From IMG/VR virus record IMGVR_UViG_2579778884_000013: a stretch of DNA of 39,745 nucleotides; one strand, written 5' to 3'. Positions 2,688-34,414 of this stretch are shown piece by piece; position 1 is the stretch's first letter, and every line of letters starts with the position of its first letter. This DNA comes from a virus (lineage: Duplodnaviria; Heunggongvirae; Uroviricota; Caudoviricetes). A model generated the notes under the pieces. It did no database searches. It was not told the DNA's origin and worked only from the letters and a program-made list of their open reading frames with translations. A program made the translations under genes and the position numbers.

Positions 2688-3078
2688 CGTCTTTTCTCCC
2701 CGGAATTAACTCGCGTGGATTATCGGAACGGTGATAGAGCCAGATGCCAATACGCACGGCGACAATTGCTGACACGAATGCGCCTGCAGAGAAAACAATC
2801 CCTTTTTCAAAAGAGTCCTGCGTGATGGTAGGGATCAGGCTGGCTATGCCGATAAGAATTGATGCTGCTGGTTTGTAAAAGAGAAGGCCGCAAAGAAAGC
2901 TGAGCATCGACAGGAGCACCCGGCGACGGATGGGGTACTCTACTGCAGAGGTAACAAAAATTACCGCCCCAGCCAAAGCCCCTAAAGCAACCTCCGGAGG
3001 GACACCTGCAATAACCGCAGCAAGAGAACTAACACTAAGCCACTGATTTGAAGTTTCATTGGTTAGTTGGAATGACAT
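2674..3078 (-). CDS. Putative holin (three predicted transmembrane helices)
   Basis: Hydrophobic segments separated by short charged loops, charged C-terminus; first gene of lysis cassette directly after tailspike. Confidence 0.55.
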   Translation of the reverse strand: MSFQLTNETSNQWLSVSSLAAVIAGVPPEVALGALAGAVIFVTSAVEYPIRRRVLLSMLSFLCGLLFYKPAASILIGIASLIPTITQDSFEKGIVFSAGAFVSAIVAVRIGIWLYHRSDNPRELIPGRKDDGNA

Positions 3079-3150
3079 AACGAAACCCGTTTATTTGCAA
3101 ACACCCTGCTTCAGGAAAAGTATACCGCGCAACAACACACCATTTACGGT

Positions 3151-5613
3151 TCAATTCCCTGTTAATTGCAAAACTTGCTCTTCCAGCTTTTTAACCCTGC
3201 GTCTCATCATCGCAGATTCCAGAATCAGAGCCTCTTCATAACGGATACCGTAACATTCACCAGCCTCGACGGCTTCGCGTACCAGAACCTTTGTCTGTAT
3301 AAGTGGGTAAACTCCTGCAGAATGCTCTTCTTCCGTCACATCCCTGTATTCTGCCGGGGTCTCATTCCACTTGTCATAACAGATAAATGCCAGTCGTGAC
3401 ACATCTATGCCTTCATTCTGAAATACACTGATAACATGCTGCGCAACTGCACCAAAGTGCCATCTTGCTCCGTCTTTACCTTTCACTTCGATCCTGTCAA
3501 GGTACTGGTATGAAACCCATTCCACTCTTTCCCATGCGTCCAGTATTTTCTCATCAATAACCTCTGGAGCAGTCTTGAAACGCGCATCGGACAGCACCGT
3601 AAACGCTGACTGGGTAAATCCCCCCGACCATGCACGACCAGCCAACCCAAGAGAATAAGTATTCGTTGTCGATGGTGTCATGGCTGAATCAGAAAACTGT
3701 ATATATTCTGAATTTCCAGTAGATATTCGAATATTTCCATTTATTAGCGACATAGTGCCTTTAGTATTATCACTATTGAATAATTTCAATTGCGAACTTA
3801 TACCGCCTCCCACAGCCAGAGATACATCGCCTTCAGCAAGCATTCTGAATTTATCTGCAGAAACAAGCGTCTGGTTAGCAAGGTTAAAATATTTAACCCA
3901 CCATTCAAAACGCCCTGACATAGTCCCAACGTACTGACCAAGCGCAGGGACGTGAACAACATTGCTATTTGTAGTGCCGTCTATACTGGAAATACCAGTC
4001 ACCGCTGATGCAGAACTCAGAATATTATTTCTGTCACCCGGATGTTTAATTTCAACAAAGTTCCTGATACACCCTTCCTCGAAGGTAACCACGCCGGAAG
4101 AACTATACATGGGGAATATTGACGCATAATTACTGCGTGCAGCATCTAAGAAACGAATGGTTGTAGATGTCTGCAGATCTCCTGATTCATTTTTCCCATC
4201 ACACCCAGTCATTAGAATATTACTGGCAATATTATTATTTCCCTGAACGGTGACTCCGTGCGCCTGCTTTGCGTCCGATTCAGAGTAATCAACCAGCACA
4301 TTCGAAATCAGGTTACCAGTCCCCTTGCCAACAACTACTGCGGCGTATTTTGGGTTGTTAGCCATTACACTGCTAATGATATTATTCGTTGGGGCAGTTT
4401 CCGTCTCAGTTCCATTGTAAACAACGTGCTTACACTCTTCACCAATAACATTGCTGACAATGTTATATTTTGCTGCTGTTTTAAGTTCCACTGCACCAAA
4501 CTGAGGATAATTTCTGGCTATCACACCATCAATTAGCGTATTTTGCGATGAATCAAAAAGCACACAACCTGCTTTTTTATTATTTGCGAACCCTAAATAC
4601 TCTCCTCTTATATCTCTAACAATGTAACCTGACGGAATACCATTATTCGGATAAGCGATCAAGCTAAATCCTGTTCCTCGCGTATTTGTAAATCTGATAT
4701 TTTTAACCGATACATCATGGCCACCTGAAAATGACACCTGGTGTCCCTGCACACTATCATCTGATTTATTTCCCATAATTGTTAGCGTACTAAGCATGCC
4801 ACCATCGGGCATGTTAAAAACCAGATGATTACCATCTCTGTCATACTGTTTTATCGTTCCCCCACCTGTTCCGTACAAGCCACAACGTGAAAGAGAAACT
4901 AAAGATGTATTGAATACCCCTTCCGGAACAAAAACACTGCTAAACGAATGTAATGATTTTGTAAAAGCATCCTTGTTATCATTTAAGATTCCATTTTGAG
5001 CTCCAAAATCCTTAATGCTGACACCATCACGCATCTTATCCTGGAACGTTCTGTATACCGCTCCAGAACCATACTGAATAAACCAACCAAAACCACCAAT
5101 AACTCCGGCGATTGCAGCATCGACATAATTACGCATTGAGCGATTATTTACAGCGTCCTGCTCAAGTGATGGATCGGCAAGGTTAGATATTCTGTTTTGC
5201 TTTGCATCGTAATATTTTGCAAGCAAAGATGGTTTCATCAATGCACGTCTGAACCACCCAAAACATCGCTGGATCAGCATCGTCAGGTAGTCAAATGCAT
5301 CCTCATGAACTTCGGGGAAAAATTTTCCCTGATTGCGAAGATCAGTCTCCTGCACCACATCAAGCACACGCTCTATCGTGATTCGCCAGCCAGCAGCAAG
5401 CGGCGACGGAAGAACCACTGCACCGCCACTATAAGTTCCCGCCCCTGTTACCGTATAACCAGCATCCAGCACTAGTTTTGTAACGTTACCGTTAAGGTCA
5501 GACACCTGAACAACCAGGTCGGATTTTTTGAAAATACGGAAGGTATACGGAAATGATGTCGTAACGCCGTTACCTGTGTATTCGTTGTGGTCAACTTCGG
5601 TTGAGACCGTCAT
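3151..5613 (-). CDS. Tailspike: T7 gp17-like N-terminal anchor, parallel beta-helix depolymerase-like centre, C-terminal intramolecular chaperone (peptidase S74-like)
   Basis: N-terminus YTGNGVTTSFPYTF...LVVQV resembles T7 tail-fibre N-domain; central repeats with N-x-I/V motifs; C-terminal LSDARFK (Ser about aa 675, nt about 3589-3591) then chaperone-like region; GGAG RBS. Confidence 0.85.
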   Translation of the reverse strand: MTVSTEVDHNEYTGNGVTTSFPYTFRIFKKSDLVVQVSDLNGNVTKLVLDAGYTVTGAGTYSGGAVVLPSPLAAGWRITIERVLDVVQETDLRNQGKFFPEVHEDAFDYLTMLIQRCFGWFRRALMKPSLLAKYYDAKQNRISNLADPSLEQDAVNNRSMRNYVDAAIAGVIGGFGWFIQYGSGAVYRTFQDKMRDGVSIKDFGAQNGILNDNKDAFTKSLHSFSSVFVPEGVFNTSLVSLSRCGLYGTGGGTIKQYDRDGNHLVFNMPDGGMLSTLTIMGNKSDDSVQGHQVSFSGGHDVSVKNIRFTNTRGTGFSLIAYPNNGIPSGYIVRDIRGEYLGFANNKKAGCVLFDSSQNTLIDGVIARNYPQFGAVELKTAAKYNIVSNVIGEECKHVVYNGTETETAPTNNIISSVMANNPKYAAVVVGKGTGNLISNVLVDYSESDAKQAHGVTVQGNNNIASNILMTGCDGKNESGDLQTSTTIRFLDAARSNYASIFPMYSSSGVVTFEEGCIRNFVEIKHPGDRNNILSSASAVTGISSIDGTTNSNVVHVPALGQYVGTMSGRFEWWVKYFNLANQTLVSADKFRMLAEGDVSLAVGGGISSQLKLFNSDNTKGTMSLINGNIRISTGNSEYIQFSDSAMTPSTTNTYSLGLAGRAWSGGFTQSAFTVLSDARFKTAPEVIDEKILDAWERVEWVSYQYLDRIEVKGKDGARWHFGAVAQHVISVFQNEGIDVSRLAFICYDKWNETPAEYRDVTEEEHSAGVYPLIQTKVLVREAVEAGECYGIRYEEALILESAMMRRRVKKLEEQVLQLTGN

Positions 5614-5717: not shown

Positions 5718-5732
5718 TTACCTTTCAGGTAA
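5718..5732. promoter_or_regulatory. Operator-like palindrome TTACC-N5-GGTAA (TTACCTTTCAGGTAA)
   Basis: Perfect 5-bp inverted half-sites with 5-bp spacer, in divergent intergenic region between tailspike and SOS-controlled small gene; same motif recurs at least 11 more times. Confidence 0.5.
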
Positions 5733-6113: not shown

Positions 6114-6203
6114 ATTTACATCGCACTCCTCTTGTGCCATAGTAATCGGGCACTGGCAAAATCCAGTGCCGGGATTGGTCTCCCGGATTACTAAGTGGCG
6201 CAT

Positions 6204-6227
6204 ACCACGCCAGACGTGGTTTTTTTA
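6204..6227 (+). terminator. Rho-independent terminator after small SOS gene
   Basis: Stem ACCACG/CGTGGT with 5-nt loop followed by T7 run. Confidence 0.5.
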
Positions 6228-6384
6228 TGCGTATAGCACAGTCATGCCAGAATTATGGTGGGCTGAATGGGGGTCCGAAAGGACGCCGGTACCACTTAGG
6301 CCGGTAAGACCAACTCCGTTCAGTTCACCACCATCTGATTGGTCTCAGCGGTGGTGATGTAATTCGCTAAGTGGAGACGCCATC

Positions 6385-7187: not shown

Positions 7188-7820
7188 ATGAGAACAAATA
7201 CAACAAGAAAAGCGATGCCATACATTATCCCAGAAGCAGATTTCGATAGAAAACTGAACATGTCTGAGAAGAACACTAGTCACACCGAAAGCTACTTAGC
7301 GAAAGGTGTGGTTGATTTCGTTCTTCCGGGATTCACAACACCTTATGGTTATCGCCTTGTAAAATCTTGTAATGGCGATCATTACAGAATGATTACTACC
7401 AGCGATACTCCAGAAACGGTGTATGCGGTTAAGTTAATCTTTCGGGAAGATATCGTCGAAGCCAAAAGAACATGTACGCAGATCATGGTATGGCGTACGC
7501 CTAATGTTATTCATGACCGTGCTGTTCATGGTTTGCCTCAGATTTTTTTTCAGTTCTTCCTAGAGCAATATGCGATCGTTGTATCTGATGAGCAACAAAC
7601 AATCGATGGGAGAAGATTCTGGGAAAGAATGATTTCTTGGGCTATAAACACCCCAGGATATAATGTATACGTTTCAGATGGCTCTGAAGAAGATAGACCT
7701 CTTAGCTTCATGACATCATGGGATGATTTCTATAGCCAGTGGGCTGATTTCTGTTGGGGCAGTGATAAAGATGTGCATACCCACAGACTACTGGTTATAA
7801 GCAAAGATAAACTGCATTAA
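7188..7820 (+). CDS. Hypothetical 210-aa cytoplasmic protein, no family recognised (orphan accessory gene)
   Basis: Strong GGGAGG RBS 5 nt upstream; own promoter/operator and terminator; appears AT-rich by eye relative to neighbours; no TM or signal peptide. Confidence 0.6.
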   Translation: MRTNTTRKAMPYIIPEADFDRKLNMSEKNTSHTESYLAKGVVDFVLPGFTTPYGYRLVKSCNGDHYRMITTSDTPETVYAVKLIFREDIVEAKRTCTQIMVWRTPNVIHDRAVHGLPQIFFQFFLEQYAIVVSDEQQTIDGRRFWERMISWAINTPGYNVYVSDGSEEDRPLSFMTSWDDFYSQWADFCWGSDKDVHTHRLLVISKDKLH

Positions 7821-8539: not shown

Positions 8540-8728
8540 TTATTTTATTATTCTTCCGAACAATACAATTCCTAATACTACAAAGCCGAACCATGCCGCT
8601 GCACGCAACAGAGATTCCAATTGAAACCCATTTTTATCAAAATGTATGAATAGCATAAAAACGCTGCACATATTAGTACAATAAAAGTTATTTGAACCAT
8701 CATATCTCCTTTTATTGCGGAGTGACAT
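8540..8728 (-). CDS. Possible small membrane protein (62 aa)
   Basis: Start overlaps stop of upstream ejection-protein gene; C-terminal hydrophobic segment AAAWFGFVVLGIVLFG; AT-rich; weak support. Confidence 0.3.
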   Translation of the reverse strand: MSLRNKRRYDGSNNFYCTNMCSVFMLFIHFDKNGFQLESLLRAAAWFGFVVLGIVLFGRIIK

Positions 8729-11186
8729 CCTGTGGTCGCCACCAGTATGTCTGGTTAAACTCTTTCTTCGAACGTTGCTCCATTTTACGCAAATAGCCTG
8801 GTGAAAAATACTCCTGCATCTGGTTAAAGATCATGTGATCGAGAGCCGCCTTCAAGTACCAGAGATTCGCACCAGGCATCAAACCTTTCCCCAGCTTCAC
8901 CAGATCACCACCAGTCTGCTCACTCTTCCCTTCCACAGCATTTAACGGTATGCCCTGAGCAATCTTCACTACGTCATCAACCAGACCAGCTACCGGGCCA
9001 AGCATCGACGCCAGCGCGCCGCTTCCGTACCTAGTGTGATCTGACAATAAAAAGTCACCGTAAAGGCCAAGACCACCACCTTTCAGTAGAGCACCAAGCC
9101 AAAATTTAGCAGCATCTTCTCCTGTCATCTCGCGAGGATTACGACCAGACGCAAGGTCGTTAAGTTGCTGCGACAAAGCGCCAAGAATGGTCGTACTGGC
9201 AATAAACGTCGCAATATATGCCGCACGCCCACCAGCAGACGGCATACCCATAGCGCGTGACCAGTGACGCATAACCACCGAGATAGGGAACGATTTAAAC
9301 AGGAAAACACTTCTCGTTAATTCACCTTTCCATGTTCCACGCTGAATACCAGAACCGGTTATCAGTTGCTCACGTGCTCCCGGTGTAATAACAGCCATAT
9401 CAACTTCTTCAGTTACGGCACCGAGCAGTTTACGCATTGCCTCAAATTTCACGCGTTCAGGCTCACCAAGATGTTTAACTGCTGAATCAGGGATACGCAT
9501 AATGCTTTCCGGTGTCAGCATCGTATTATTGCCGTTCCCCCAGTCCTCCTGTTGCGCCAGCTTCCATACGCTCCAGTCTGTGTCAGTAATCCCTTTGCTT
9601 TTCAGGATACGAAAATCAGAATCATCGAGGCTACGAAGGTCTGGTGTCCGTGACACTACTTCTCCCAAGCTTCCCATCATGGTTACGCCATAGGCGCGCT
9701 TGTGCGCATCTGACCATGCTGTAAGCCCACTGGCACGCATTACCGCCGTTGCAGCCCAACGAGACACAGACGGCCCCATATTATCCATCGCCCAGCGGTT
9801 AACGCTGCCAAGTAGAGATTCCATCGCCAGACCAGCGCGGCGCGCCCGCGCAAGTTCTGTACGGTTCGTTGGGTCCATAGCTTCAAGCTGGTTGCGGAAT
9901 AACTGGTTCATTGGAAGGTTGGTAACCTTCGCAGACAGATACATGGTTCCAAGATCAGAGAACGATGACAGCAACGCGGATCCGAGTCTGCTGGCAACCA
10001 GCCAGTTGCGGATATTGTCAGACCATCGCGCGATGTGCGGATTCGCTACAGGCTGTGTCTTTCCGGAAATAAAGTTGTACAGATTCTCTGTGTTGTTCGC
10101 CAGCCGCTCGACTTTACCGGTTTTACTCGGGTTAGCTGTTGCCGTTTCTGCCTTCACCTGATCAAGAAGAGAGCGGAAAACATGATCGGGGTTTGGGCCA
10201 TATGTTTCCACCAGTGCAATATCTTTACTGATACCTTCCAGGTGACCGACCATGATTTCCCATAGAGAGCGATCGCCATAAAGTTGCTGATATTGAAGAT
10301 AGGAATCTGCATCTTTGAAATGTATCTGTCGTGATGCATTACCACGGTTAGCACGTGCGCCGGAAATTCGCATTCCGGTATCAGTAAGCTTATTCAACCC
10401 ACCAGTAGCGATCGTGTTATAAGCCTCTCCAAGAAATGCAGACAACTCGGCATCGTTCATCAGTTGTCCATCGGCTCGGGTATAATATTTGCGATCCAGC
10501 TTACCTATAACATCGCTAACCCATTTATCTTTTGATACCGCCCCAACCTTTTCCATAGAATGATGTTGAGGGATCCCCCAGTTTTCGAGATAGCCAATGT
10601 CCCCACCAGCATCATTAAACCGGCGGCGCAGCAGCTCTGTAACTTCTCTCCACGCCTTAGCACCTTTTCTTGCTTTAGCATTGCCAGTATTTTGCCCCCG
10701 CATTTCATATACCAGGTCACGTACGCCAGCTTCATCTTCAAACAGACCAAAAAAGCGAGGATCAACTGCTTCGAATGCCTCCTGCAATTGACTCAATGCA
10801 TAATCACGGGTGGCTTTTGTTCTGGATTCAACAGAGAGGAAATTCGATTTACCGTCTGCATTAAAAGCAATAGTACGGTTAAGAGCGCCAAGTTTCCCAT
10901 CAGCCCCTTGATAGCTATTGATAAATTTATCCAATCTCTGACGTGCGGCTATAGTGAGGGCCACACGACGTTTCTTTAATGCCGCTTCTCGCTGTAATTC
11001 TTCAGATGCCAATTGTGCTGCACGATATAGCCGCTCTGATTCGGAAAGTTGTCTCCACGACATCGGGTCATCACGAGCAATAGAGCGCATATTTCGATAA
11101 ATGCGGTCTTCAATGTTCTGTATTTCTCGCGCCGTTAACGTGCGCTGCGCCGCCTGCTGGACCGCTTGTATACATTCCTGTCTCAT
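8712..11186 (-). CDS. Large internal virion (ejection/core) protein, T7 gp16-position
   Basis: 824 aa; AGAGG RBS; C-terminal hydrophobic/Gly-rich segments; position between tail-tube genes and tailspike. Confidence 0.6.
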   Translation of the reverse strand: MRQECIQAVQQAAQRTLTAREIQNIEDRIYRNMRSIARDDPMSWRQLSESERLYRAAQLASEELQREAALKKRRVALTIAARQRLDKFINSYQGADGKLGALNRTIAFNADGKSNFLSVESRTKATRDYALSQLQEAFEAVDPRFFGLFEDEAGVRDLVYEMRGQNTGNAKARKGAKAWREVTELLRRRFNDAGGDIGYLENWGIPQHHSMEKVGAVSKDKWVSDVIGKLDRKYYTRADGQLMNDAELSAFLGEAYNTIATGGLNKLTDTGMRISGARANRGNASRQIHFKDADSYLQYQQLYGDRSLWEIMVGHLEGISKDIALVETYGPNPDHVFRSLLDQVKAETATANPSKTGKVERLANNTENLYNFISGKTQPVANPHIARWSDNIRNWLVASRLGSALLSSFSDLGTMYLSAKVTNLPMNQLFRNQLEAMDPTNRTELARARRAGLAMESLLGSVNRWAMDNMGPSVSRWAATAVMRASGLTAWSDAHKRAYGVTMMGSLGEVVSRTPDLRSLDDSDFRILKSKGITDTDWSVWKLAQQEDWGNGNNTMLTPESIMRIPDSAVKHLGEPERVKFEAMRKLLGAVTEEVDMAVITPGAREQLITGSGIQRGTWKGELTRSVFLFKSFPISVVMRHWSRAMGMPSAGGRAAYIATFIASTTILGALSQQLNDLASGRNPREMTGEDAAKFWLGALLKGGGLGLYGDFLLSDHTRYGSGALASMLGPVAGLVDDVVKIAQGIPLNAVEGKSEQTGGDLVKLGKGLMPGANLWYLKAALDHMIFNQMQEYFSPGYLRKMEQRSKKEFNQTYWWRPQDVTPQ

Positions 11187-11191
11187 TTAAT

Positions 11192-12994
11192 TTAACCTCT
11201 CAAGAAACACGCCACAGCGACATCAAACAGGCTGGAATCCTGTATTGCCTGCTCACTTTCCCTGTTCGCTTCATCCAGTACTTCACGCGCGCTGCGCGAT
11301 TGTGGATTACCATCATCATCCAGCACGGTGATTATCATGTCAGGTGATTCAAGCAGCGAGTCTTCAGCTATGCGCAGATCAATATCTCCTGCCTTATCTG
11401 ACATCATTTTTTGTTCTGCCTGTTGCAATATTTTATCAGGCTCAAAAGGAGCTACTTCGTCTGGCGTCCTGACCTCTGCTGTTTTATAGAATGAAACAGC
11501 CTGAGCATTAAGTTCACTTTCTGCCTGCTGTCTCCGAGCCAGTTCTGCTCGAGCTTCAAAAAGCTGACCGCCAGGCTCGTGCGGTGCCAACGCGTTACGG
11601 GAAAATTCCAGGCGTTCTTGTGCCTGCCGGATTCGTTGATCAATATCGCGAAGTCTGGCCTGTTTATCTGATCGAGCACGAGACAAAGCTTTACCGCTAC
11701 CGGTTGGCTCTTCTGCAAGAATTTGTGCACGCTGTTCAGTGAGATTTTCAATAATTCGTTGGCTATTAGCGATTTCAGACTGGTAAACCTGTCTATCTCC
11801 ACGCGGCAAAAGCTGCGCGGCCTGTTCTTCAAGCAACCGATTTTCTATAGCGCGCGCCGTTACTCCATCATCTACAGATGACAGAGCCTCATTAACTGCC
11901 TGAGACAGCAGACTCTTGCGCCCAGGAATTTCACTGAAAGATGCAGACTCAACAATGCTGGCAACGTCTACAGGTCTCCCCTGGCTAACATCAGACATAG
12001 CTTTTCGCAGAGCCTGAATGTGAGAATTGCGCGAAAGCACGTTGATCGGCACGCCGGGCGCAATATCAATTTCAGCATGATGAGCGGCATTCGCCGCCAG
12101 TGCAGCATCGATATCAACTGGTGAAAAATTTGGTGCGTTTGTAGACTCGCCGCGAGAGTTAATAAATCTGCCGACACCACCAAACGCCACCCCAAGAACA
12201 GCATCAATAGCAATTGCCTGTCGATCCAACACATCATACTGGTTAGCCATTTCGCTATAGCCACCATCACGAAGCGTTTTTGCAGTAAGCCCACGCTGTG
12301 CCATACCGAACGCAATATTTGTACCTGCGGCATAGGCAATATCTGGCGTTGCACGTACTGCTGTTGCTGCGGCGCGTCGTACTGAACTTTCACCCGTCCG
12401 CGCGAGCTGAGCCGCCACACCTTCCGCCAGCGCACCACCAGCACGTAACCCGAGGCTCATAGGGATCAATGTCCCGGCCCCAGCAGTAATGCCCTGCACT
12501 AATCCCGCTTCCTGCGCTGTCCTGAAATCAACACCCTGTGCTGTCAGCCGTTCAAACTCAGAAAAACCCTGTAGCGAAGTTACCGCCGCTGCACCTCCGA
12601 CAGGACCACCGAGCGTTGTACCGACAACAGCCTGCCCGCCCATATCGAACAACCCATAAAGAACCTGCCCGGCGGTTCCGGTTGTCGCGGCATCAGGCGT
12701 CAGCCGCTTAACCTGCTGCTCTGCTAGTTTTCTCTGCTCGGCAATGTATGAAACTGAAGTGTCATTGAGCGAGGTGTTTTCGTTAACAAACTGAGCAATC
12801 GGGGATACGATTTTATCCATCCCTGCCCATAGCAACTGATCTGGCTTTGCCACCAGCCCGGAGTACAAACCAGACAATGCCGCTCCTACAGCATTGTCGA
12901 AAAAACCAACATCGCTGTTAAAGCCAGCTGGATTTGATACTGCTTCGTCAAGCTGCTGATTCTGGTTTACTGGATTAAGGCCAAAGTAACTCAT
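11192..12994 (-). CDS. Internal virion (ejection) protein
   Basis: 600 aa, Ala/Gly-rich; start overlaps upstream stop (ATGA); position in ejection-protein block. Confidence 0.55.
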   Translation of the reverse strand: MSYFGLNPVNQNQQLDEAVSNPAGFNSDVGFFDNAVGAALSGLYSGLVAKPDQLLWAGMDKIVSPIAQFVNENTSLNDTSVSYIAEQRKLAEQQVKRLTPDAATTGTAGQVLYGLFDMGGQAVVGTTLGGPVGGAAAVTSLQGFSEFERLTAQGVDFRTAQEAGLVQGITAGAGTLIPMSLGLRAGGALAEGVAAQLARTGESSVRRAAATAVRATPDIAYAAGTNIAFGMAQRGLTAKTLRDGGYSEMANQYDVLDRQAIAIDAVLGVAFGGVGRFINSRGESTNAPNFSPVDIDAALAANAAHHAEIDIAPGVPINVLSRNSHIQALRKAMSDVSQGRPVDVASIVESASFSEIPGRKSLLSQAVNEALSSVDDGVTARAIENRLLEEQAAQLLPRGDRQVYQSEIANSQRIIENLTEQRAQILAEEPTGSGKALSRARSDKQARLRDIDQRIRQAQERLEFSRNALAPHEPGGQLFEARAELARRQQAESELNAQAVSFYKTAEVRTPDEVAPFEPDKILQQAEQKMMSDKAGDIDLRIAEDSLLESPDMIITVLDDDGNPQSRSAREVLDEANRESEQAIQDSSLFDVAVACFLRG

Positions 12995-22503: not shown

Positions 22504-22800
22504 TCACTCCTGTTCACTGGCCTCTTTGGCCATCTTCAAATACTGTTCAGGGCAATGCGCCATAACGCGCTGAAACAGTTCCAGCGCCAGATTGCGTTGC
22601 CCCTCATTAAATGCCATTGCCATAGCGTCCATCGGTGAGATAGCGGAAAACACACGGCCTTTCTCCAGCACCGACCAGACAACGCGACGCCCCTGTTCAC
22701 TGCTCATGACAAAGCGAATGTCATCAATTTCACGCTGCGCCATGTCACGTTGCTTACGGGCGTTTTCTTCTTTCAGTTGATCGTCTTCGTAATCAGTCAT
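22504..22800 (-). CDS. Hypothetical protein between portal and scaffold
   Basis: 98 aa; start overlaps portal stop (ATGA). Confidence 0.5.
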   Translation of the reverse strand: MTDYEDDQLKEENARKQRDMAQREIDDIRFVMSSEQGRRVVWSVLEKGRVFSAISPMDAMAMAFNEGQRNLALELFQRVMAHCPEQYLKMAKEASEQE

Positions 22801-24476
22801 TGTGATTGCCCACCCTGACCACTAACTGCATTCGCCATAGCTGACAAAACACTCGGATCCGAAGTTTTAGCTTCGCTTAGCGTCTTGGCGCCCTGTGCCG
22901 CCGCCATCCCCATCGCCATCATTTGTTGCTGCTGTTGCTGCTGTGCCCGTTGCTGGCGAGCCTGCTCAACCTGTTCCTGCGGAACAATGACGGTTGGAGA
23001 CACTCCGGACATATCAGCGAATGCATCGATCGCCTGATCAACGTTGAGTTTGTCGAGAGCTTCTGGTTTCGCTTGCGCAAGTTGACCAATGAAGTTGACC
23101 GTAGACGCCAGACTGGACAGGCCGATAGACTTCTGCGCCTGAGCCATGACGGAAATGTATTCGACCTTCAGGGGCATACCTTCCATCACGTCTGGCGGTG
23201 GCGGCAGCATGTTTTTACGCACCATCATTGAGAAAGCGCGGTCAATGAGAGGATTAAGACATTCGTCGTTCAGACGCTCCAGAACCGGCCCCAACATCAG
23301 AAGTTTTTCTTCTTTCATTTCGATCACTGCTTCAACAGGCATCGAGCGGGTATTGATGTTCTGCAACATCATGAACAGATCGACAAAGTAGGCGCTGTTA
23401 ATGATTTGACGAGTGTCCTGAATGTCTGCTACCAGATCTGCTGTACTGGGGTTAACCAGATAAGCAGGCCTGAAGCCATCCTGACCAGTAATCTGATCGA
23501 TATACGTGATGTCGCCAGGAAGAAGGGAGGCGCGCTGATTCTTGAGGGAAGTCGGAGCAACCATCGGCGGATTGGTGGCTTTATCAATCAACTGCGACTT
23601 GCGCTTCTGGAGAAGTTGCAATGCCTTAACAGGTCCAAGCGCCAGCATACCCGGGCATGATGATCCATAAACATCTTCGCCATTAACTTCCCAGCGCGGA
23701 GCCATAATTGGAAACTCATCAAATCCGGACTCACGCAACAACTTGTCGTTATCGCCACCAACCTCGTAATAAACCGATTTGAATGGCTTGTTCTTGCTAT
23801 CCAGCTTCGATGTATCGCGGTCAATGTTCGGGTAAACCGAATGCATCACGTCAATCCACTTCTCGTAGGTGCCGCTTTCCCACATGCTTTTTACGGATTC
23901 GCTGACGTTATTTAGCCCGAACTCCTGAACAAGCTGACGAACAGTCATAGAGAACTTGCGAAAACAGGTGTCCACACTGCCACGAGGTGAGTTAGCCAGG
24001 TAGTAACTGCCTATCGGGAATGGCATTGTGCGAATGATGTCCTCGTCATCCTCCAGCACCGCCATTGCACCAGTGCTGTATGTGCCGAGGCTTCCGTATA
24101 ACTGCGGAAGAGACTGGTAGAGATTCGACTTATTGAACATATCGTTCATGCGGTTCTGCACCGCCTCGAGCCACAACTTAACAGGACCATAATCCATCAT
24201 TTCAGGATCTGGCGTAGCCAGGCGAAACCACGGACGCGCGGGGCTTGTGATGCCTGACATCATGCCGCTGGCGAGAGTGCGCGCCGCCATAGTCCCGGTC
24301 GAATCAATAATGCGTGTATTGCGTCGATCGTTACGGTTGACCTCAGAAGTCAGAAAGCGGGAACCACGCGGGTTGATGTAATCACTCAACTCGCGCCAGT
24401 GCGGCTCAAACGACTGACGCTCGCTTTCAAGTTGTGCGAACTGTTTGTTCAATCGCTCTTTAGTTGTTTCCGCCAT
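22797..24476 (-). CDS. Portal protein
   Basis: 559 aa; GGAG RBS; C-terminal Gln/Ala-rich tail; first large gene of structural block after terminase. Confidence 0.75.
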   Translation of the reverse strand: MAETTKERLNKQFAQLESERQSFEPHWRELSDYINPRGSRFLTSEVNRNDRRNTRIIDSTGTMAARTLASGMMSGITSPARPWFRLATPDPEMMDYGPVKLWLEAVQNRMNDMFNKSNLYQSLPQLYGSLGTYSTGAMAVLEDDEDIIRTMPFPIGSYYLANSPRGSVDTCFRKFSMTVRQLVQEFGLNNVSESVKSMWESGTYEKWIDVMHSVYPNIDRDTSKLDSKNKPFKSVYYEVGGDNDKLLRESGFDEFPIMAPRWEVNGEDVYGSSCPGMLALGPVKALQLLQKRKSQLIDKATNPPMVAPTSLKNQRASLLPGDITYIDQITGQDGFRPAYLVNPSTADLVADIQDTRQIINSAYFVDLFMMLQNINTRSMPVEAVIEMKEEKLLMLGPVLERLNDECLNPLIDRAFSMMVRKNMLPPPPDVMEGMPLKVEYISVMAQAQKSIGLSSLASTVNFIGQLAQAKPEALDKLNVDQAIDAFADMSGVSPTVIVPQEQVEQARQQRAQQQQQQQMMAMGMAAAQGAKTLSEAKTSDPSVLSAMANAVSGQGGQSQ

Positions 24477-24490
24477 TTCAATGACTCCGG

Positions 24491-24697
24491 TTACTGACCA
24501 AGCAGCGTTTTACCGCTGGTATTAGCGGTTGATGTGTCGCCCTGAGAACCGGTAAGCAGCGTAGAACTACGACCAGCAGCAGCGCGACGGCGACGTGTTT
24601 CTTCGTCGCGGGCATCAACAACGGCGACATCCTGCTCCTGTGGTGCTGCCTGAACTTCTGGTGTTGCAGGCACTGATGGTGAGCTACCCATGCACAT
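24491..24697 (-). CDS. Possible small protein preceding portal (68 aa)
   Basis: GGAG RBS about 9 nt upstream of ATG 24697; overlapping alternate frame exists; weak support. Confidence 0.3.
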   Translation of the reverse strand: MCMGSSPSVPATPEVQAAPQEQDVAVVDARDEETRRRRAAAGRSSTLLTGSQGDTSTANTSGKTLLGQ

Positions 24698-24787
24698 ATC
24701 AATGACTCCGTACGCAATTAAATTATTACCAATTTAACCACATATGTTTTATTTATCGTAGAAGGTTGACATTTAACGCGCTAATTA

Positions 24788-24802
24788 TTACCTTTCAGGT
24801 AA
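24788..24802. promoter_or_regulatory. Operator-like palindrome TTACC-N5-GGTAA (TTACCTTTCAGGTAA, identical to 5718 site)
   Basis: Lies between - strand late operon start and + strand tRNA unit; TTGACA hexamer at 24766-24771. Confidence 0.45.
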
Positions 24803-25124
24803 CTAAAGAGTTCATTCCGGTTACTAACCTGACTGGCTTGTCGTTAAATTGAACAGGTGGAGTGAGCTTTTATTTTGAGCAGTACGGCGTATGGCACATG
24901 CGCCGATAGCGGTCTGGATACGTTTAAGGGGCACCCTCCCTTGCTCGGGCAAACGAACCAGGTAGCCGGAATGTGCAAGTCGAGCGGTTTTATTCCGCGC
25001 ACGGGGATTCACCATCCCGGCGATTCGGTGTGACGCCTCGGAAGAGACGAGGGTACAACGATGAGAGCATTTATGGAGCCGCGACAAAGTGTGGCGCCTT
25101 AACAGGCTAAGTGCTCTCAGCGTT

Positions 25125-25201
25125 GTGGCATTAGCTCAGTTGGACAGAGCAACCGCCTTCTAAGCGGTTGGTCGCAGGTTCGAATCCTGCATGCCACGCC
25201 A
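25125..25201 (+). tRNA. tRNA-Arg (anticodon UCU, reads AGA)
   Basis: Cloverleaf read directly: acceptor GTGGCAT/ATGCCAC, D-arm GCTC-AGTTGGACA-GAGC, anticodon arm ACCGC-CTTCTAA-GCGGT, T-arm GCAGG-TTCGAAT-CCTGC, discriminator G, encoded CCA. Confidence 0.85.
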
Positions 25202-25244
25202 GAATCACGCCTAAGGACCGTGATGCCAGAAGTTCCAGGGGGTT

Positions 25245-25287
25245 GGCGGTGATGGTTTCCCTTGAAGGACTATCACCGCCCTTTTTA
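25245..25287 (+). terminator. Rho-independent terminator after tRNA
   Basis: 9-bp stem GGCGGTGAT/ATCACCGCC around 18-nt loop, followed by CTTTTT. Confidence 0.55.
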
Positions 25288-25364
25288 CAGCAGGACGCCA
25301 TTGCGATGACTTCATGCTGTAAACCAGTACAGCCACGGAAGGCATAACTCATTGCTTCCAGTTC

Positions 25365-25388
25365 GCCCGGTTCGCCGGGCATTTTTTT
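25365..25388 (+). terminator. Strong hairpin with U-tract abutting RBS of Gp49-like gene (terminator or attenuator)
   Basis: GCCCGG-TTCG-CCGGGC (UUCG tetraloop) followed by ATTTTTTT, then AAGGTGAG RBS and ATG 25400. Confidence 0.55.
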
Positions 25389-25399
25389 AAGGTGAGATT

Positions 25400-25756
25400 A
25401 TGAACGACCAGCAAATCGAAAAAGAAATCGTTGAGAAAGGCAAAACCGCTCCGCGAGTTACGCCTCAATATATCGAAAGCATCATTCTTGAAGAGCATTT
25501 CTTTACTGCTTATGACGGCATTCGTGCTGCCAATATGGGCGTTGGCGATTCATGGACAGCGCATAAATCTACAGACCTCCTGACTTTCTGCGTATTGGTA
25601 CTGAAGAATGGCTTCACCGTCACCGGAGAGAGTGCCTGTGCAAGTCCGGAAAATTTTGATGCAGAAATTGGTCGGAAGATTGCCCGGCAGAATGCTGTAA
25701 ACAAAATCTGGATGCTCGAAGGTTACTTGCTGAAGCAGAAGTTAAGCGAGCAATAA
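25400..25756 (+). CDS. Gp49-like phage protein (N4 Gp49 / Sf6 gene 66 family), function unknown
   Basis: Motifs TAPRVTP, LKNGFTVTGES, WMLEGYLL recalled from this family; encoded antisense to flanking late genes. Confidence 0.55.
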   Translation: MNDQQIEKEIVEKGKTAPRVTPQYIESIILEEHFFTAYDGIRAANMGVGDSWTAHKSTDLLTFCVLVLKNGFTVTGESACASPENFDAEIGRKIARQNAVNKIWMLEGYLLKQKLSEQ

Positions 25757-25846
25757 CACCGTGGCATGTCACAAACAGCAAGCCTATGAACTGGCTTTGT
25801 TTTATCCTCACCAGAAGATATCAACGACATTATCCCCACCAGCGAA

Positions 25847-27322
25847 TTAAGCATAAGGGTCATAATCCGTTATGGCCCTTCCCTGCTGGCTTTGCTGTCC
25901 TGGTATATTTATGCGTTTCGAGACCGGGAAAGCAAACGTCAGCAGTAGCGCATCGCCTTTACCAGGAGAACGCCCAAGACGCTCTTTGATATCTTCCTTC
26001 GGTTCGATAACGATTTTACCGTCCACACGAACTTTGTACTCTGCCGCAGACAGGTCGTCCGCTGTTTCCTGGTCATCCAGCATGCCGCCCAGCCTCAGCC
26101 ATGTCTTGCATGAGTTGAACATCTCCCCACGCTTGTTGAGCATCTGCGGGTCAGTAGACGCGCCACCGAACGGAACAAGTTGCCATGTGCGCCCCCAACC
26201 ATCACCGATTGACTTCAGACCGGTACCGTAACCGAAGTCGATGAACACCGCGTCAGCCTGATACTGGTCTTCAAAGTCAGCGATACGCTTCGCCATAATC
26301 AGATCGTCGGTAGTCTTGTTGCCAGTCCACAGCACCTTACTGTGTAGCCCCTGCCGCAGGTATATCACCGCGTCATCAACGCCTGAATATGCCGGGTCAA
26401 CACCGATTATCACCGGAGCATGCGCCACCTGCGCAGCGGTTACCACCCGTTTCATTGCCTCATCAGTAAGACCGGTAGGGATAAACTGCAATTCAGATGC
26501 ATCAGGGAATATGCCGCGCACACGGATTTTAACGAAGTCGCTGTCTTCCCCGTAGTCATCGACCCATTTCTGCAACTGCTGTTTGTTAGTGCCTTCCACC
26601 GTCCGGCTGTCAATCTGCGCAGTTTTCCAGCGGTGTTTATATTTGCGGAAACATTCGCGGAAACGCCCGGTGTTACGTGTAGGGTTTCCGAACGCCACCC
26701 AGATAATCTCAGTGTCTTCGTCCGTAAGCGCACCCTCAGCAACTTCCCACACCAGATCCGCAATGTTCGACGCTTCATCGAATACCACGATGATGCGTTT
26801 GCGCTCGTTGTGTAGTCCGGCGAATGCCTCAGTGTTGTGCTCAGACCAGGGGATTGCGTCAGCTCGCCACCGCTTGTCGTGCCCAGGATCATTGCTGTAC
26901 ATCGCGGTAGCGGTACAGGTAAACCAGTCTTTCGTGATAGCAAGGTTCGACCACTTGATAATTTCCGGCCAGGTCTTCGTTTGTAGCTGGTTTTCGGTGT
27001 TGGCGGTCACCACGACCTTACAATCCTCGCAAGTGGACATGCCCCAGTTGATCAGCATTGAGATGAATGCGGATTTACCAATACCGTGACCAGAAGCACG
27101 TGCCAGCATAAGCGGCTGATAGCGCGTCTCTGGATTCTGCAGGTGATCACGTATCTCTCGGAACGCATCAGCCTGCCACTGACGTGGACCGGTGGCATGT
27201 GCCAGTTCAGTCCCCTCTTCCCCCCACGGGAACGCATAGATGGCATAGCCAAGCGGATCGTGAGTGAACCCTGCAATATCCTCGATCAACTGCTCTTCAG
27301 GAGATAACGCTGTATCTGTCAC
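25847..27322 (-). CDS. Terminase large subunit
   Basis: 491 aa; ATPase-like N-half and nuclease-like C-half with acidic motifs; GTG start overlapping small-subunit stop. Confidence 0.85.
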   Translation of the reverse strand: MTDTALSPEEQLIEDIAGFTHDPLGYAIYAFPWGEEGTELAHATGPRQWQADAFREIRDHLQNPETRYQPLMLARASGHGIGKSAFISMLINWGMSTCEDCKVVVTANTENQLQTKTWPEIIKWSNLAITKDWFTCTATAMYSNDPGHDKRWRADAIPWSEHNTEAFAGLHNERKRIIVVFDEASNIADLVWEVAEGALTDEDTEIIWVAFGNPTRNTGRFRECFRKYKHRWKTAQIDSRTVEGTNKQQLQKWVDDYGEDSDFVKIRVRGIFPDASELQFIPTGLTDEAMKRVVTAAQVAHAPVIIGVDPAYSGVDDAVIYLRQGLHSKVLWTGNKTTDDLIMAKRIADFEDQYQADAVFIDFGYGTGLKSIGDGWGRTWQLVPFGGASTDPQMLNKRGEMFNSCKTWLRLGGMLDDQETADDLSAAEYKVRVDGKIVIEPKEDIKERLGRSPGKGDALLLTFAFPVSKRINIPGQQSQQGRAITDYDPYA

Positions 27323-33829: not shown

Positions 33830-34414
33830 ATGAAAAGTATCCAGGACGTCCGCAGGCAAAATCTCAACGACTTGATCGACCGTGAATTCAATGGTGTTCA
33901 GACGCGGATGGCAGAAAAACTTGGAACTCAGGCAAATCTGGTAAACCGCTGGGCTCTTGGAAAGAAGGTTATCGGCGACCAGGTTGCGCGAAAAATTGAA
34001 GCTGCCGCCAATAAACCCCGTAACTGGCTTGATATCGATCGCTCGCTTTCTCAGGAAGGTTTTCAGCCTGTCGGCCCAAGCGACATTGGTCAGCTGGCGG
34101 CTCACAACCTGGAACGCTGGATGAGCGAAAGCCGCGACCTTTCAACGCAGGGAAAACTACACCGCGCATCCGGCGTCGCCCAGGTGACAATCAGCCGCCT
34201 GTTAAACAATGAAGTCAGCGTTTCCATTTCCACCCTGGAGAATGTTGCATCCGCATTCGGGCGTCACGGCTATGAATTACTGATTCACCCGCACGACCCT
34301 GCGACTATCAACTATGATCGCTCGCGCTACGCATTGTTACCTGAAACAGAGAAGGCAAAGATCGAAAGTTACATTGAATTTGTCATCAACCAGAACGAAA
34401 AAAGAAAACAATAA
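33830..34414 (+). CDS. Prophage repressor with two XRE-type HTH domains and no S24 peptidase domain
   Basis: Two HTH-like segments (TRMAEKLGTQANLVNRWALGKK and HRASGVAQVTISRLLNNEVSVS); no Ala-Gly ... Ser ... Lys autocleavage module; divergent from cro-like gene across operators. Confidence 0.7.
   Translation: MKSIQDVRRQNLNDLIDREFNGVQTRMAEKLGTQANLVNRWALGKKVIGDQVARKIEAAANKPRNWLDIDRSLSQEGFQPVGPSDIGQLAAHNLERWMSESRDLSTQGKLHRASGVAQVTISRLLNNEVSVSISTLENVASAFGRHGYELLIHPHDPATINYDRSRYALLPETEKAKIESYIEFVINQNEKRKQ

Follow-up and report, generated by a model that had tools for sequence, protein, structure and literature searches.

A conserved structured RNA upstream of a phage tRNA-Arg(UCU) gene and its recurrence in repressor-controlled units of enterobacterial phages

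Introduction

Among the structured RNAs of phage early operons, the closest described systems are putL and putR of HK022 and the "putL-like antiterminator RNA" of HK639, which act independently of proteins and stand just downstream of the early promoter of lambdoid phages lacking N, with terminators beyond them. An RNA of the put type promotes terminator read-through, a process dependent on the zinc-binding domain of the RNA polymerase beta-prime subunit. Here we analyse a 39,745-nucleotide (nt) stretch of viral DNA (IMG/VR record IMGVR_UViG_2579778884_000013; hereafter the window), in which a conserved structured RNA of 172 nt precedes a tRNA-Arg(UCU) gene. By its sequence the window is an epsilon15/phiV10-type (Uetakevirus) prophage: in BLAST searches its region 24700-25400 is 98-100% identical to phiV10, TL-2011b, vB_EcoP_ZX5 and the O157 typing phages 9 and 10, and equally to prophages in more than 500 complete Escherichia coli genomes. 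The put-like location, with an early repressor-controlled promoter upstream and terminators beyond, is found in the window and in phage cdtI, P1 being the exception, and the left operon carries a single copy, as it does in HK639. The put RNAs, however, measure about 70 nt (HK022) or 126 nt (HK639) and comprise two or three stem-loops, whereas the new RNA has 172 nt and two proposed pseudoknots and, unlike put, also occurs outside the lambdoids, in P1 and epsilon15-like phages, and in mid-operon positions.

Other phage RNAs share some of these properties. The tRNA clusters of P1 (trnA/trnT/trnI) and of T4, the latter with its species 1 and 2 RNAs, likewise place an RNA beside tRNAs on one transcript, from which it is probably released by tRNA-processing enzymes, and their tRNAs match a codon over-used by the phage, as here. 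The new RNA differs from these tRNA-linked RNAs in belonging to another sequence family, in its occurrence in temperate enterobacterial phages and in its direct repressor control. The antisense RNAs C4 of P1 and CI of P4 (the C4/isrK clan of Rfam) are small structured RNAs cut by RNase P from the leader of a repressor-controlled operon, but the new RNA has no similarity to C4 and complementary target sites were not identified. Likeness to DicF, or to the "dicF-like region" of P1, is confined to the cargo and terminator of the cassette described below, the core RNA itself being unrelated to DicF. GOLLD and ROOL, ornate non-coding RNAs of phages and prophages from other bacterial phyla, are often found next to tRNAs and are 500-800 nt long; they are comparable as phage RNAs beside tRNAs, differ in size and host phyla, and have no Rfam match in the window. 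The new RNA belongs with the structured RNAs of phage early operons, and there is a real chance that it represents a new mechanistic class.

A conserved structured RNA on the plus strand

The sequence ahead of the tRNA had been described in the initial annotation as a GC-rich leader of about 300 nt without a convincing open reading frame (ORF), possibly a second functional RNA. Its composition (GC fraction 0.60) and the lack of a convincing ORF, with no family match, were borne out, while its length was not, as it consists of a 172-nt core and a 69-nt hairpin. Conservation and covariation lend strong support to the suggestion that the leader may be a second functional RNA.

The core (24885-25056, plus strand) is recognised with 143 bits (E-value 3e-43) by R1, a covariance model derived from the 25-copy alignment described below. 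Its alignment-based fold begins with helix H1 (24885-24905, loop GGCAC) and the long-range helix H2, in which 24909-24916 pair with 24959-24966; these are followed by an invariant strand at 24961-24979 seen in the alignment, a variable hairpin near 24984-24998, H4 (25004-25018), whose loop CACC (25010-25013) pairs with GGUG at 25027-25030, and H5 (25036-25052). The 3' hairpin module (CAACGAUGAGAGCA ... UGCUCUCAGCGUUG; 25056-25124, plus strand), predicted as a minimum-free-energy fold, abuts nucleotide 1 of the tRNA with its base. It is present in 11 of the 38 lineages, with a variable tip, 17-21 flanking pairs and UGG following it in every case, and the copies of cdtI and mEp460 are homologous through to 25124.

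The structure was tested on a MAFFT alignment of 25 diverse copies, which was not fitted to any structure and on which H1, H2, H4, H5 and the two pseudoknots were proposed. Standard pairing holds in 97.4% of its 774 cells; both sides have changed in 11 of the 31 pairs (60 cells), no column shuffle out of 500 matched the observed pairing values, and sliding the partner by 1-3 columns lowers pairing to 25-47%. Whole helices have been rewritten: GGGA/UCCC of H4 appears as ACGC/GCGU, ACGA/UCGU and others, and CCUCG/CGAGG of H5 as CCUGG/CCAGG, GCCGG/CCGGC or CCCGG/CCGGG, while pair 5-17 of H1 exchanges G-C for A-U in 9 sequences and H2 exchanges C-G for U-A, also in 9. The pseudoknot between the H4 loop and the downstream strand covaries as well, CACC/GGUG becoming AACC/GGUU in the cdtI group and in one Kosakonia copy, where the change, judged from a CACC/GGUG sister copy (L164), apparently arose independently of the cdtI group. 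A second pseudoknot, between the H1 loop GGCAC and GUGC, fits every sequence, both sides being nearly invariant and the pairing hence unproven. About 80 cells of the alignment are G-U pairs, which would become A-C mismatches if read on the minus strand; the RNA is therefore on the plus strand. Between the helices lie nearly invariant blocks, namely the 19-mer GGUAGCCGGAAUGUGCAAG, AGCGGUC, GGCG and GGUGUGAC, and of 23 genome copies chosen without use of the 19-mer, 22 have it intact. The conserved structured RNA on the plus strand is real.

A coding role on either strand was rejected. Core lengths range from 146 to 178 nt and fall into modulo-3 classes of 11, 8 and 6 copies, and there is no codon periodicity, substitutions being spread over the three codon positions as 13, 12 and 11; an 87-amino-acid (aa) minus-strand ORF over the leader had no match in Pfam and PHROG searches. 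Hypothetical coding sequences, on one strand or the other, overlie the RNA in mEp460 (mEp460_037), Tyrion (BI095_gp54), Ayreon, phiSTEC1575-Stx2k and JL22. These calls are probably spurious, and recognition of the RNA corrects such annotations. A search of 24700-25400 against Rfam 15 at E-values up to 10 returned nothing beyond the tRNA and noise, and the sister loci gave the same result.

Distribution of the RNA family

BLAST searches with 24830-25124 retrieved copies with 99-100% identity in phiV10-like phages, with 80-84% identity over 24884-25124 in lambdoid phages (cdtI, mEp460, 2H10, Ayreon and Shiga toxin (Stx)2c- and Stx2a-converting phages) and with 77-81% identity over 24884-25046 in P1, P7, D6, SJ46 and RCS47, together with weaker matches in Klebsiella, Salmonella and Enterobacter phages and in one phage with Stenotrophomonas as its recorded host. 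Homology starts at 24884 for the lambdoid and P1 copies and at about 24837 for the Uetakevirus copies; judged from these alignments, the boundaries define two modules, a core from 24884/5 to about 25056 and a hairpin to 25124, and the 5' leader (24803-24884, plus strand) is common only to epsilon15-type phages.

At least 120 IMG/VR contigs contain an invariant 17-mer, GTAGCCGGAATGTGCAA; they yield at least 111 distinct sequences and at least 38 clusters at 93% identity. A second, independent pattern had 56 matches in a species-genome collection, 23 of them confirmed by the covariance model as full-length copies; the other 33 are chance matches in unrelated GC-rich genomes. Enterobacterales account for 22 of the 23 confirmed loci, with the genera Escherichia, Citrobacter, Klebsiella, Enterobacter, Kosakonia, Phytobacter, Kluyvera, Pseudescherichia, Pseudocitrobacter and Superficieibacter and with Candidatus Erwinia dacicola. 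The exception (L184) is a full-length copy scoring 156.9 bits on a 1753-bp contig of a metagenome-assembled genome labelled "Bacillota", probably a binning contaminant.

Among 5426 complete E. coli genomes, 1839 carry the core; the matches number 2470, of which 554 lie on plasmids, and none of the matches listed had an annotated feature beneath it. Carriers include Stx-converting phages and a prophage of the O104:H4 outbreak strain. One and the same core occurs in podovirus, siphovirus and myovirus backgrounds, and recombination junctions mark its ends. The tRNA is already known, but the RNA family of the leader is absent from Rfam 15 and goes without annotation by PGAP and in phage records; no description of the RNA was found in the searchable literature, whose coverage is incomplete, so that an earlier account may exist elsewhere. 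A near-invariant RNA of 172 nt is thus carried by about one-third of complete E. coli genomes and by the textbook phage P1 without annotation or an Rfam family.

Repressor-controlled early units in three phage types

A sigma-70-type promoter stands upstream of the RNA in the window (24766-24794, plus strand), with the -35 hexamer TTGACA at 24766-24771, a 17-nt spacer and TACCTT at 24789-24794 as the -10 hexamer, placing the putative start at about 24802. The same TTGACA-17-TACCTT layout is kept in epsilon15; a consensus scanner passed the promoter over because the -10 hexamer fits at just 3 of 6 positions. The palindrome TTACCTTTCAGGTAA (24788-24802), a repressor operator, overlaps the -10 hexamer. 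It has 12 copies in the window at up to one mismatch and 19 at up to two, against 0.86 expected, and these surround the helix-turn-helix repressor gene (33830-34414), the isrK/C4 region and further intergenic sites, and the homologous site of epsilon15 is labelled "repressor, lysogeny" in its annotation. The earlier proposal that an operator-like site and a TTGACA hexamer mark a regulated unit is thus upheld by the recurrence of the 15-bp palindrome across the prophage and by its annotated counterpart in epsilon15. The scatter of the operators suggests a repressor like C1 of P1, with many sites rather than a single immunity region.

Dispersed copies of the 15-bp palindrome TTACCTNNNAGGTAA were recorded at 5718, 6099, 7114, 24788, 31343, 31405, 33375, 33760, 34472, 34534 and other positions. 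Rfam isrK (6150-6226, 67.7 bits) and C4 antisense RNA (6251-6335, 61.2 bits) lie side by side on the plus strand of the window, just downstream of the operator copies at 5718 and 6099, an adjacency that resembles the immI antirepressor control region of P1 and P7; the right operons of cdtI and mEp460 hold the same pair.

Downstream of the tRNA, where a terminator had been predicted, there are two intrinsic terminators. Trailer and terminator 1 (25202-25286, plus strand) include a 14-bp stem at 25245-25280 of about -22 kcal/mol followed by CUUUUU, and both have homologues in the sister cassettes that Uetakevirus and lambdoid phages carry. Terminator 2 (25365-25388, plus strand), a GC-only stem of 6 bp (25365-25380) followed by U7, is kept in epsilon15 and ends 1 nt before the ribosome-binding site of an ORF of 118 aa (25400-25756, plus strand) in the Phage_gp49_66 family (Pfam PF13876, 118.6 bits; PHROG 322), named "Gp49 family protein" in RefSeq. 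A consensus scan of the window found no promoter-like site between the two terminators. This co-oriented ORF, the last element of the unit, was overlooked initially, so that the composition given for the unit was incomplete. The unit as a whole is a repressor-controlled early transcription unit made up mostly of RNA genes, in the order promoter and operator, leader of about 80 nt, 172-nt RNA, 69-nt hairpin, tRNA-Arg(UCU), two terminators and gp49/66-family ORF.

The commonest context in E. coli is that of lambdoid prophages, in which an unannotated gap separates a CI-type repressor gene from yfdP-yfdQ-yfdR-yfdS downstream. In the cdtI locus, the cI stop at 2882 is followed by a terminator (2894-2911), the promoter PL (TTGACA-16-CATAAT, 11 of 12 positions; 2921-2948), the core (3002-3172), the hairpin (up to 3232), a further RNA of about 130 nt, a strong terminator (3365-3411) and the first ORF at 3549, PL overlapping one copy of the operator found three times between cI and cro. 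Across lineages at least six repressor types precede the core, and in two (L037 and L117) the promoter spacing places the putative transcription start at core nucleotide 1. The first ORFs downstream fall into six unrelated families, including an excisionase, ParB-like and YfdP-like proteins and PHROG 2479, and no N-like protein is found among them; there is therefore no conserved protein partner.

In P1-like phage-plasmids the C1-controlled ban operon contains the core, which begins 15 nt past trnI (tRNA-Ile2) and stops about 90 nt short of ban; in P1 it lies 2.3 kb into the operon, with no terminator between core and ban. Mapping by CRISPR interference in P1 classed trnI and ban as non-essential (PMC10695390). 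Given the operator in the window, PL with its OR-type operator in cdtI and Pban in P1, all three phage types have the RNA in an early unit under repressor control, and it is predicted to be among the first sequences transcribed on prophage derepression.

A mobile RNA-gene cassette

The hairpin of the window leads into G1 of the tRNA without a spacer. A co-oriented tRNA is directly adjacent to the core in 43 of 129 loci: several distinct core lineages have tRNA-Arg(UCU) immediately downstream, and P1-like phages have tRNA-Ile2 immediately upstream. The other 86 loci have no tRNA within 1.5 kb. Elsewhere the tRNA slot is filled by RNAs of 83-133 nt, placed between ...GCGUUG and the common trailer (AAUCACGCCUNAGGACCGUGAU) and followed by the common terminator (UUGGCGGU...ACCGCCCUUUUUACA). 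They start with GUGG, end with CCAC-AAC(A/C) and are predicted to adopt a cloverleaf-like fold closed by a terminal stem. Such RNAs, homologous in position to 25125-25201, were located in L002 (3241-3373), L003, which is cdtI (3232-3344), L007 (about 2783-2910), L104 and L085; neither ARAGORN nor Rfam made calls on them, and from their predicted folds they may be tRNA-derived or substrates of RNase P like C4 and CI.

Immediately past Pban, P1 and P7 have a stretch that shares 75-81% identity with the cdtI cargo RNA (L003, 3249-3344); in P1 (NC_005856, 68739-68832) it overlaps the annotated "dicF-like region". By this identity, P1 holds the same cassette parts in another order, namely Pban, dicF-like region, tRNAs, trnI, core and ban. 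The sister terminator of L085 scores 27.7 bits on Rfam DicF (RF00039), below the gathering score of 48, and the identification of terminator 1 with DicF found no support, 25195-25300 giving no match at E-values up to 10.

Several relatives lack the core. Epsilon15 keeps promoter, operator, leader, H1 and half of H2, together with terminator 2 and gp50, whereas the remaining core, the tRNA and terminator 1 are gone; the deletion (L005, 2551-2634) leaves the initial third of the core joined directly to the spacer past terminator 1, and an "RNaseIII" feature annotated in epsilon15 adjoins the truncated element. In SfV (L194, 1500-2170) an insertion of about 650 bp carrying orf33 takes the place of the core, and PL, the 3' hairpin strand, the tRNA-like RNA, the terminator and a yfdP homologue are retained. 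Hafnia phage yong2 has cI, PL and the yfdP operon with neither core nor terminator, and Citrobacter phage phiNP has the same repressor-to-yfdP operon without the core. These variants indicate that the cassette is an insertion between promoter and operon to which the terminator belongs; since layouts of terminator plus ORF survive without the core, the terminators are not obviously core-dependent. The unit is best described as a mobile RNA-gene cassette comprising core, hairpin, an RNA of the RNase P type (here tRNA-Arg), trailer and terminator, and the leader represents a family of mobile RNAs that does not depend on the tRNA.

The tRNA-Arg(UCU) gene and codon usage

ARAGORN (anticodon tct) and the Rfam tRNA model (73.3 bits; gathering score 29) concur on an intact tRNA-Arg(UCU) at 25125-25201, with CCA encoded at 25199-25201, on the plus strand between portal and terminase, as first described. 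The closest host gene, argU, differs from it at 13 of 77 aligned positions. Acceptor pairs 2-71, 4-69 and 6-67 and two anticodon-stem pairs are altered on both sides, all stem differences being compensatory, and the D, anticodon and T loops are kept save for one D-loop base, two variable-loop bases also differing; the earlier description of argU-like loops and stems changed by paired compensation is exactly what this comparison gives. Arginine identity is determined by A20, C35 and G73. All three are the same in the phage tRNA and argU, and the 3' CCA is intact.

The tRNA had been taken for a distinct gene rather than an attachment-site remnant, and the data agree: it is full length, lies mid-prophage, away from the prophage-host junction, in more than 500 E. 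coli genomes and is carried by the genomes of free phages including phiV10, ZX5 and typing phages 9 and 10. The phage attachment site (attP) of the phiV10/epsilon15-type group lies at guaA (PMC9782041), and the remnant explanation is rejected.

Codon usage, for which AGA frequency had been proposed as a check, was compared by applying one crude ORF picker to the window and to 50 kb of host core genes. AGA accounts for 7.6 per 1000 codons in the window against 2.2 in the host core genes, a 3.5-fold excess (odds ratio 3.5, p = 2e-11), and AGG for 4.7 against 1.7. The AGA codons are concentrated in 3151-5613, 7188-7820, 8712-11186 and 11192-12994, with 13 in the 820 codons of 3151-5613 (minus strand) and 10 in the 210 codons of 7188-7820 (plus strand), and a codon count in the window found none in the portal, capsid and terminase genes. 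The two last-named AGA-rich ORFs, 7188-7820 and 3151-5613, are likely the main clients of the tRNA; ORF 7188-7820 matches PHROG 1349. Given the over-use of AGA, the tRNA is a phage tRNA of the usual codon-compensating kind, and RefSeq and some phage records already annotate it.

Possible functions of the RNA

We favour a processed stand-alone early RNA as the function of the core, at a probability of roughly 0.4, and place it above a put-like antiterminator acting in cis. The RNA upstream of the tRNA would be a gene product in its own right, made once the repressor is lifted. Since the hairpin abuts tRNA nucleotide 1, the RNase P cut at the 5' end of the tRNA should release it; in P1 the equivalent job would fall to the maturation of tRNA-Ile, which precedes the core, and the compact fold and terminal hairpin would keep the RNA stable. 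During early lytic growth the RNA would then act, presumably in trans (a word used here as a placeholder), on some conserved component of the host. Most transcripts would end at terminator 1, leak-through would express the gp49/66-family ORF and the tRNA would decode AGA. This reading is ranked first because the core clusters with tRNA and tRNA-like genes, has processing-competent boundaries and occupies varied operon positions, and because it travels with its own terminator while core-less variants keep terminators. Three observations weigh against it: in N-less lambdoids the core sits exactly at the place of nutL or putL, which a role in cis fits at least equally well; the ORF of the window stands behind two terminators with no promoter between them, so that some mechanism of read-through is needed; and the 3' end of the P1 RNA has no obvious processing site.

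A somewhat less probable role is that of a cis-acting processive antiterminator resembling HK022 put: the nascent RNA would bind its own RNA polymerase or block Rho, and transcription of the untranslated cassette would run on past the intrinsic terminators into the ORFs downstream. It is ranked second because it best explains the PL-proximal site in N-less lambdoids and the ORF behind two promoterless terminators. The core follows directly on operator-controlled early promoters under at least six CI-type repressors, the putative start even coinciding with core nucleotide 1 in L037 and L117; the core-bearing lambdoids have no N-like ORF, N-less relatives having been noted before (PMC12315714). 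Both the window and cdtI have terminators before the first ORF without an intervening promoter, core and strong terminator were lost together in epsilon15, there is no protein partner, and the invariant single-stranded segments would suit binding to a conserved host enzyme. There is also a precedent, as put RNA acts untethered (PMC9378689). An RNAfold-based detector finds a terminator downstream of the core in 25 of 35 lineages, a count that carries no weight against a background rate of 1.6 per kb; a stricter detector overlooked large-loop terminators. The core-less phages speak against such a role: cargo RNA and terminator persist in SfV, terminator 2 and gp50 in epsilon15, and the yong2 operon does without core and terminator alike. 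Moreover, the P1 core lies 2.3 kb into its operon with no terminator before ban, the terminator moves along with the cassette, there is a single copy per phage, and similarity to the HK639 putL-like RNA or to the HK022 put region is undetectable, R1 finding nothing in HK639 at E-values up to 10 and nothing in the HK022 immunity region with filters off. A 16-nt HK022 match (nhmmer --max) is a chance match inside the nun coding sequence, resemblances to HK639 picked out by eye (CGGCG...AUGCGUCG and CUCNGGAAGAG) failed to score, and Rfam has no put family for comparison. By these searches, the failed homology test weakens the proposition that the RNA is a put RNA and would leave intact the proposition that it works like one. 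An N/nut system was rejected, as there is no N gene and a canonical boxA lies near the core in 1 of 38 lineages; the boxA/boxB-like H5 loop GAAGAGA and hairpin strand UGCUCU(C/U) were rejected likewise, the strand being base-paired and covarying. It is conceivable that the RNA forms a third class of elements that reprogram RNA polymerase or Rho, structurally unrelated to put, which replaced N/nut at PL in a large group of lambdoid prophages and was borrowed by P1 and epsilon15-like phages for untranslated RNA-gene cassettes.

The remaining explanations carry less weight. The structure might merely aid folding, stability or RNase processing of the adjacent tRNA, small RNA or operon mRNA, as the core lies beside tRNAs or tRNA-like RNAs in many loci, its hairpin abuts the tRNA and the annotators of epsilon15 placed a proposed RNase III site nearby; such a passive precursor leader is improbable, however, given that 86 of 129 loci have no tRNA inside 1.5 kb, that a 19-nt single-stranded block is near-invariant in unrelated phages, including 22 of 23 copies not selected by it, and that two pseudoknots exceed the needs of a processing helper. 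An attenuator sensing a ligand or tRNA, in the manner of a riboswitch, and gating the early operon through the downstream terminator would accord with a compact, pseudoknotted core conserved like an aptamer in a 5' leader with a terminator beyond. Yet the core-terminator distance varies from 190 to 450 nt among loci, and the intervening tRNA or other RNA (in the window the hairpin, the 77-nt tRNA and the trailer before terminator 1) makes alternative pairing impossible; with no terminator in P1 and no matches to known aptamers, this explanation is quite improbable. A minus-strand role, for example as a processing site in terminase-portal late mRNA or through the 87-aa ORF, is scarcely credible: the minus strand also folds well (z = -2.65) and hypothetical proteins are annotated there over the element in some phage records, but the G-U cells turn into A-C mismatches, the element is co-oriented with the operon in lambdoids and P1, and the ORF has no family match, indels in all three frame classes and no codon periodicity.

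If the RNA is an antiterminator, it would explain expression of the early-left operon in a large class of N-less lambdoid phages; if it acts in trans, phages would have in it a widespread effector directed against a conserved target in the host.

Gene order and neighbouring features

The gene order around the unit was taken from the RefSeq annotation of an identical prophage. On one side lie, on the minus strand, the major capsid and protease genes, then the portal gene (22797-24476) and a 68-aa ORF (24491-24697); on the other, also on the minus strand, lies the gene for the terminase large subunit (25847-27322), with the small subunit adjoining. The unit between them had been called antisense to the late operon, which is imprecise: it points away from the gp3-portal block and towards terminase. 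The weak hairpin at 25780-25797, between the convergent gp49-family ORF and terminase gene, is bidirectional in the terminator scan.

Among other loci, L089 has an exact rrn-type boxA (UGCUCUUUAACAA) at about +128 from the anchor, present in 1 of 38 lineages and not significant; in L089, L033 and L046 a minus-strand terminator immediately follows the core.

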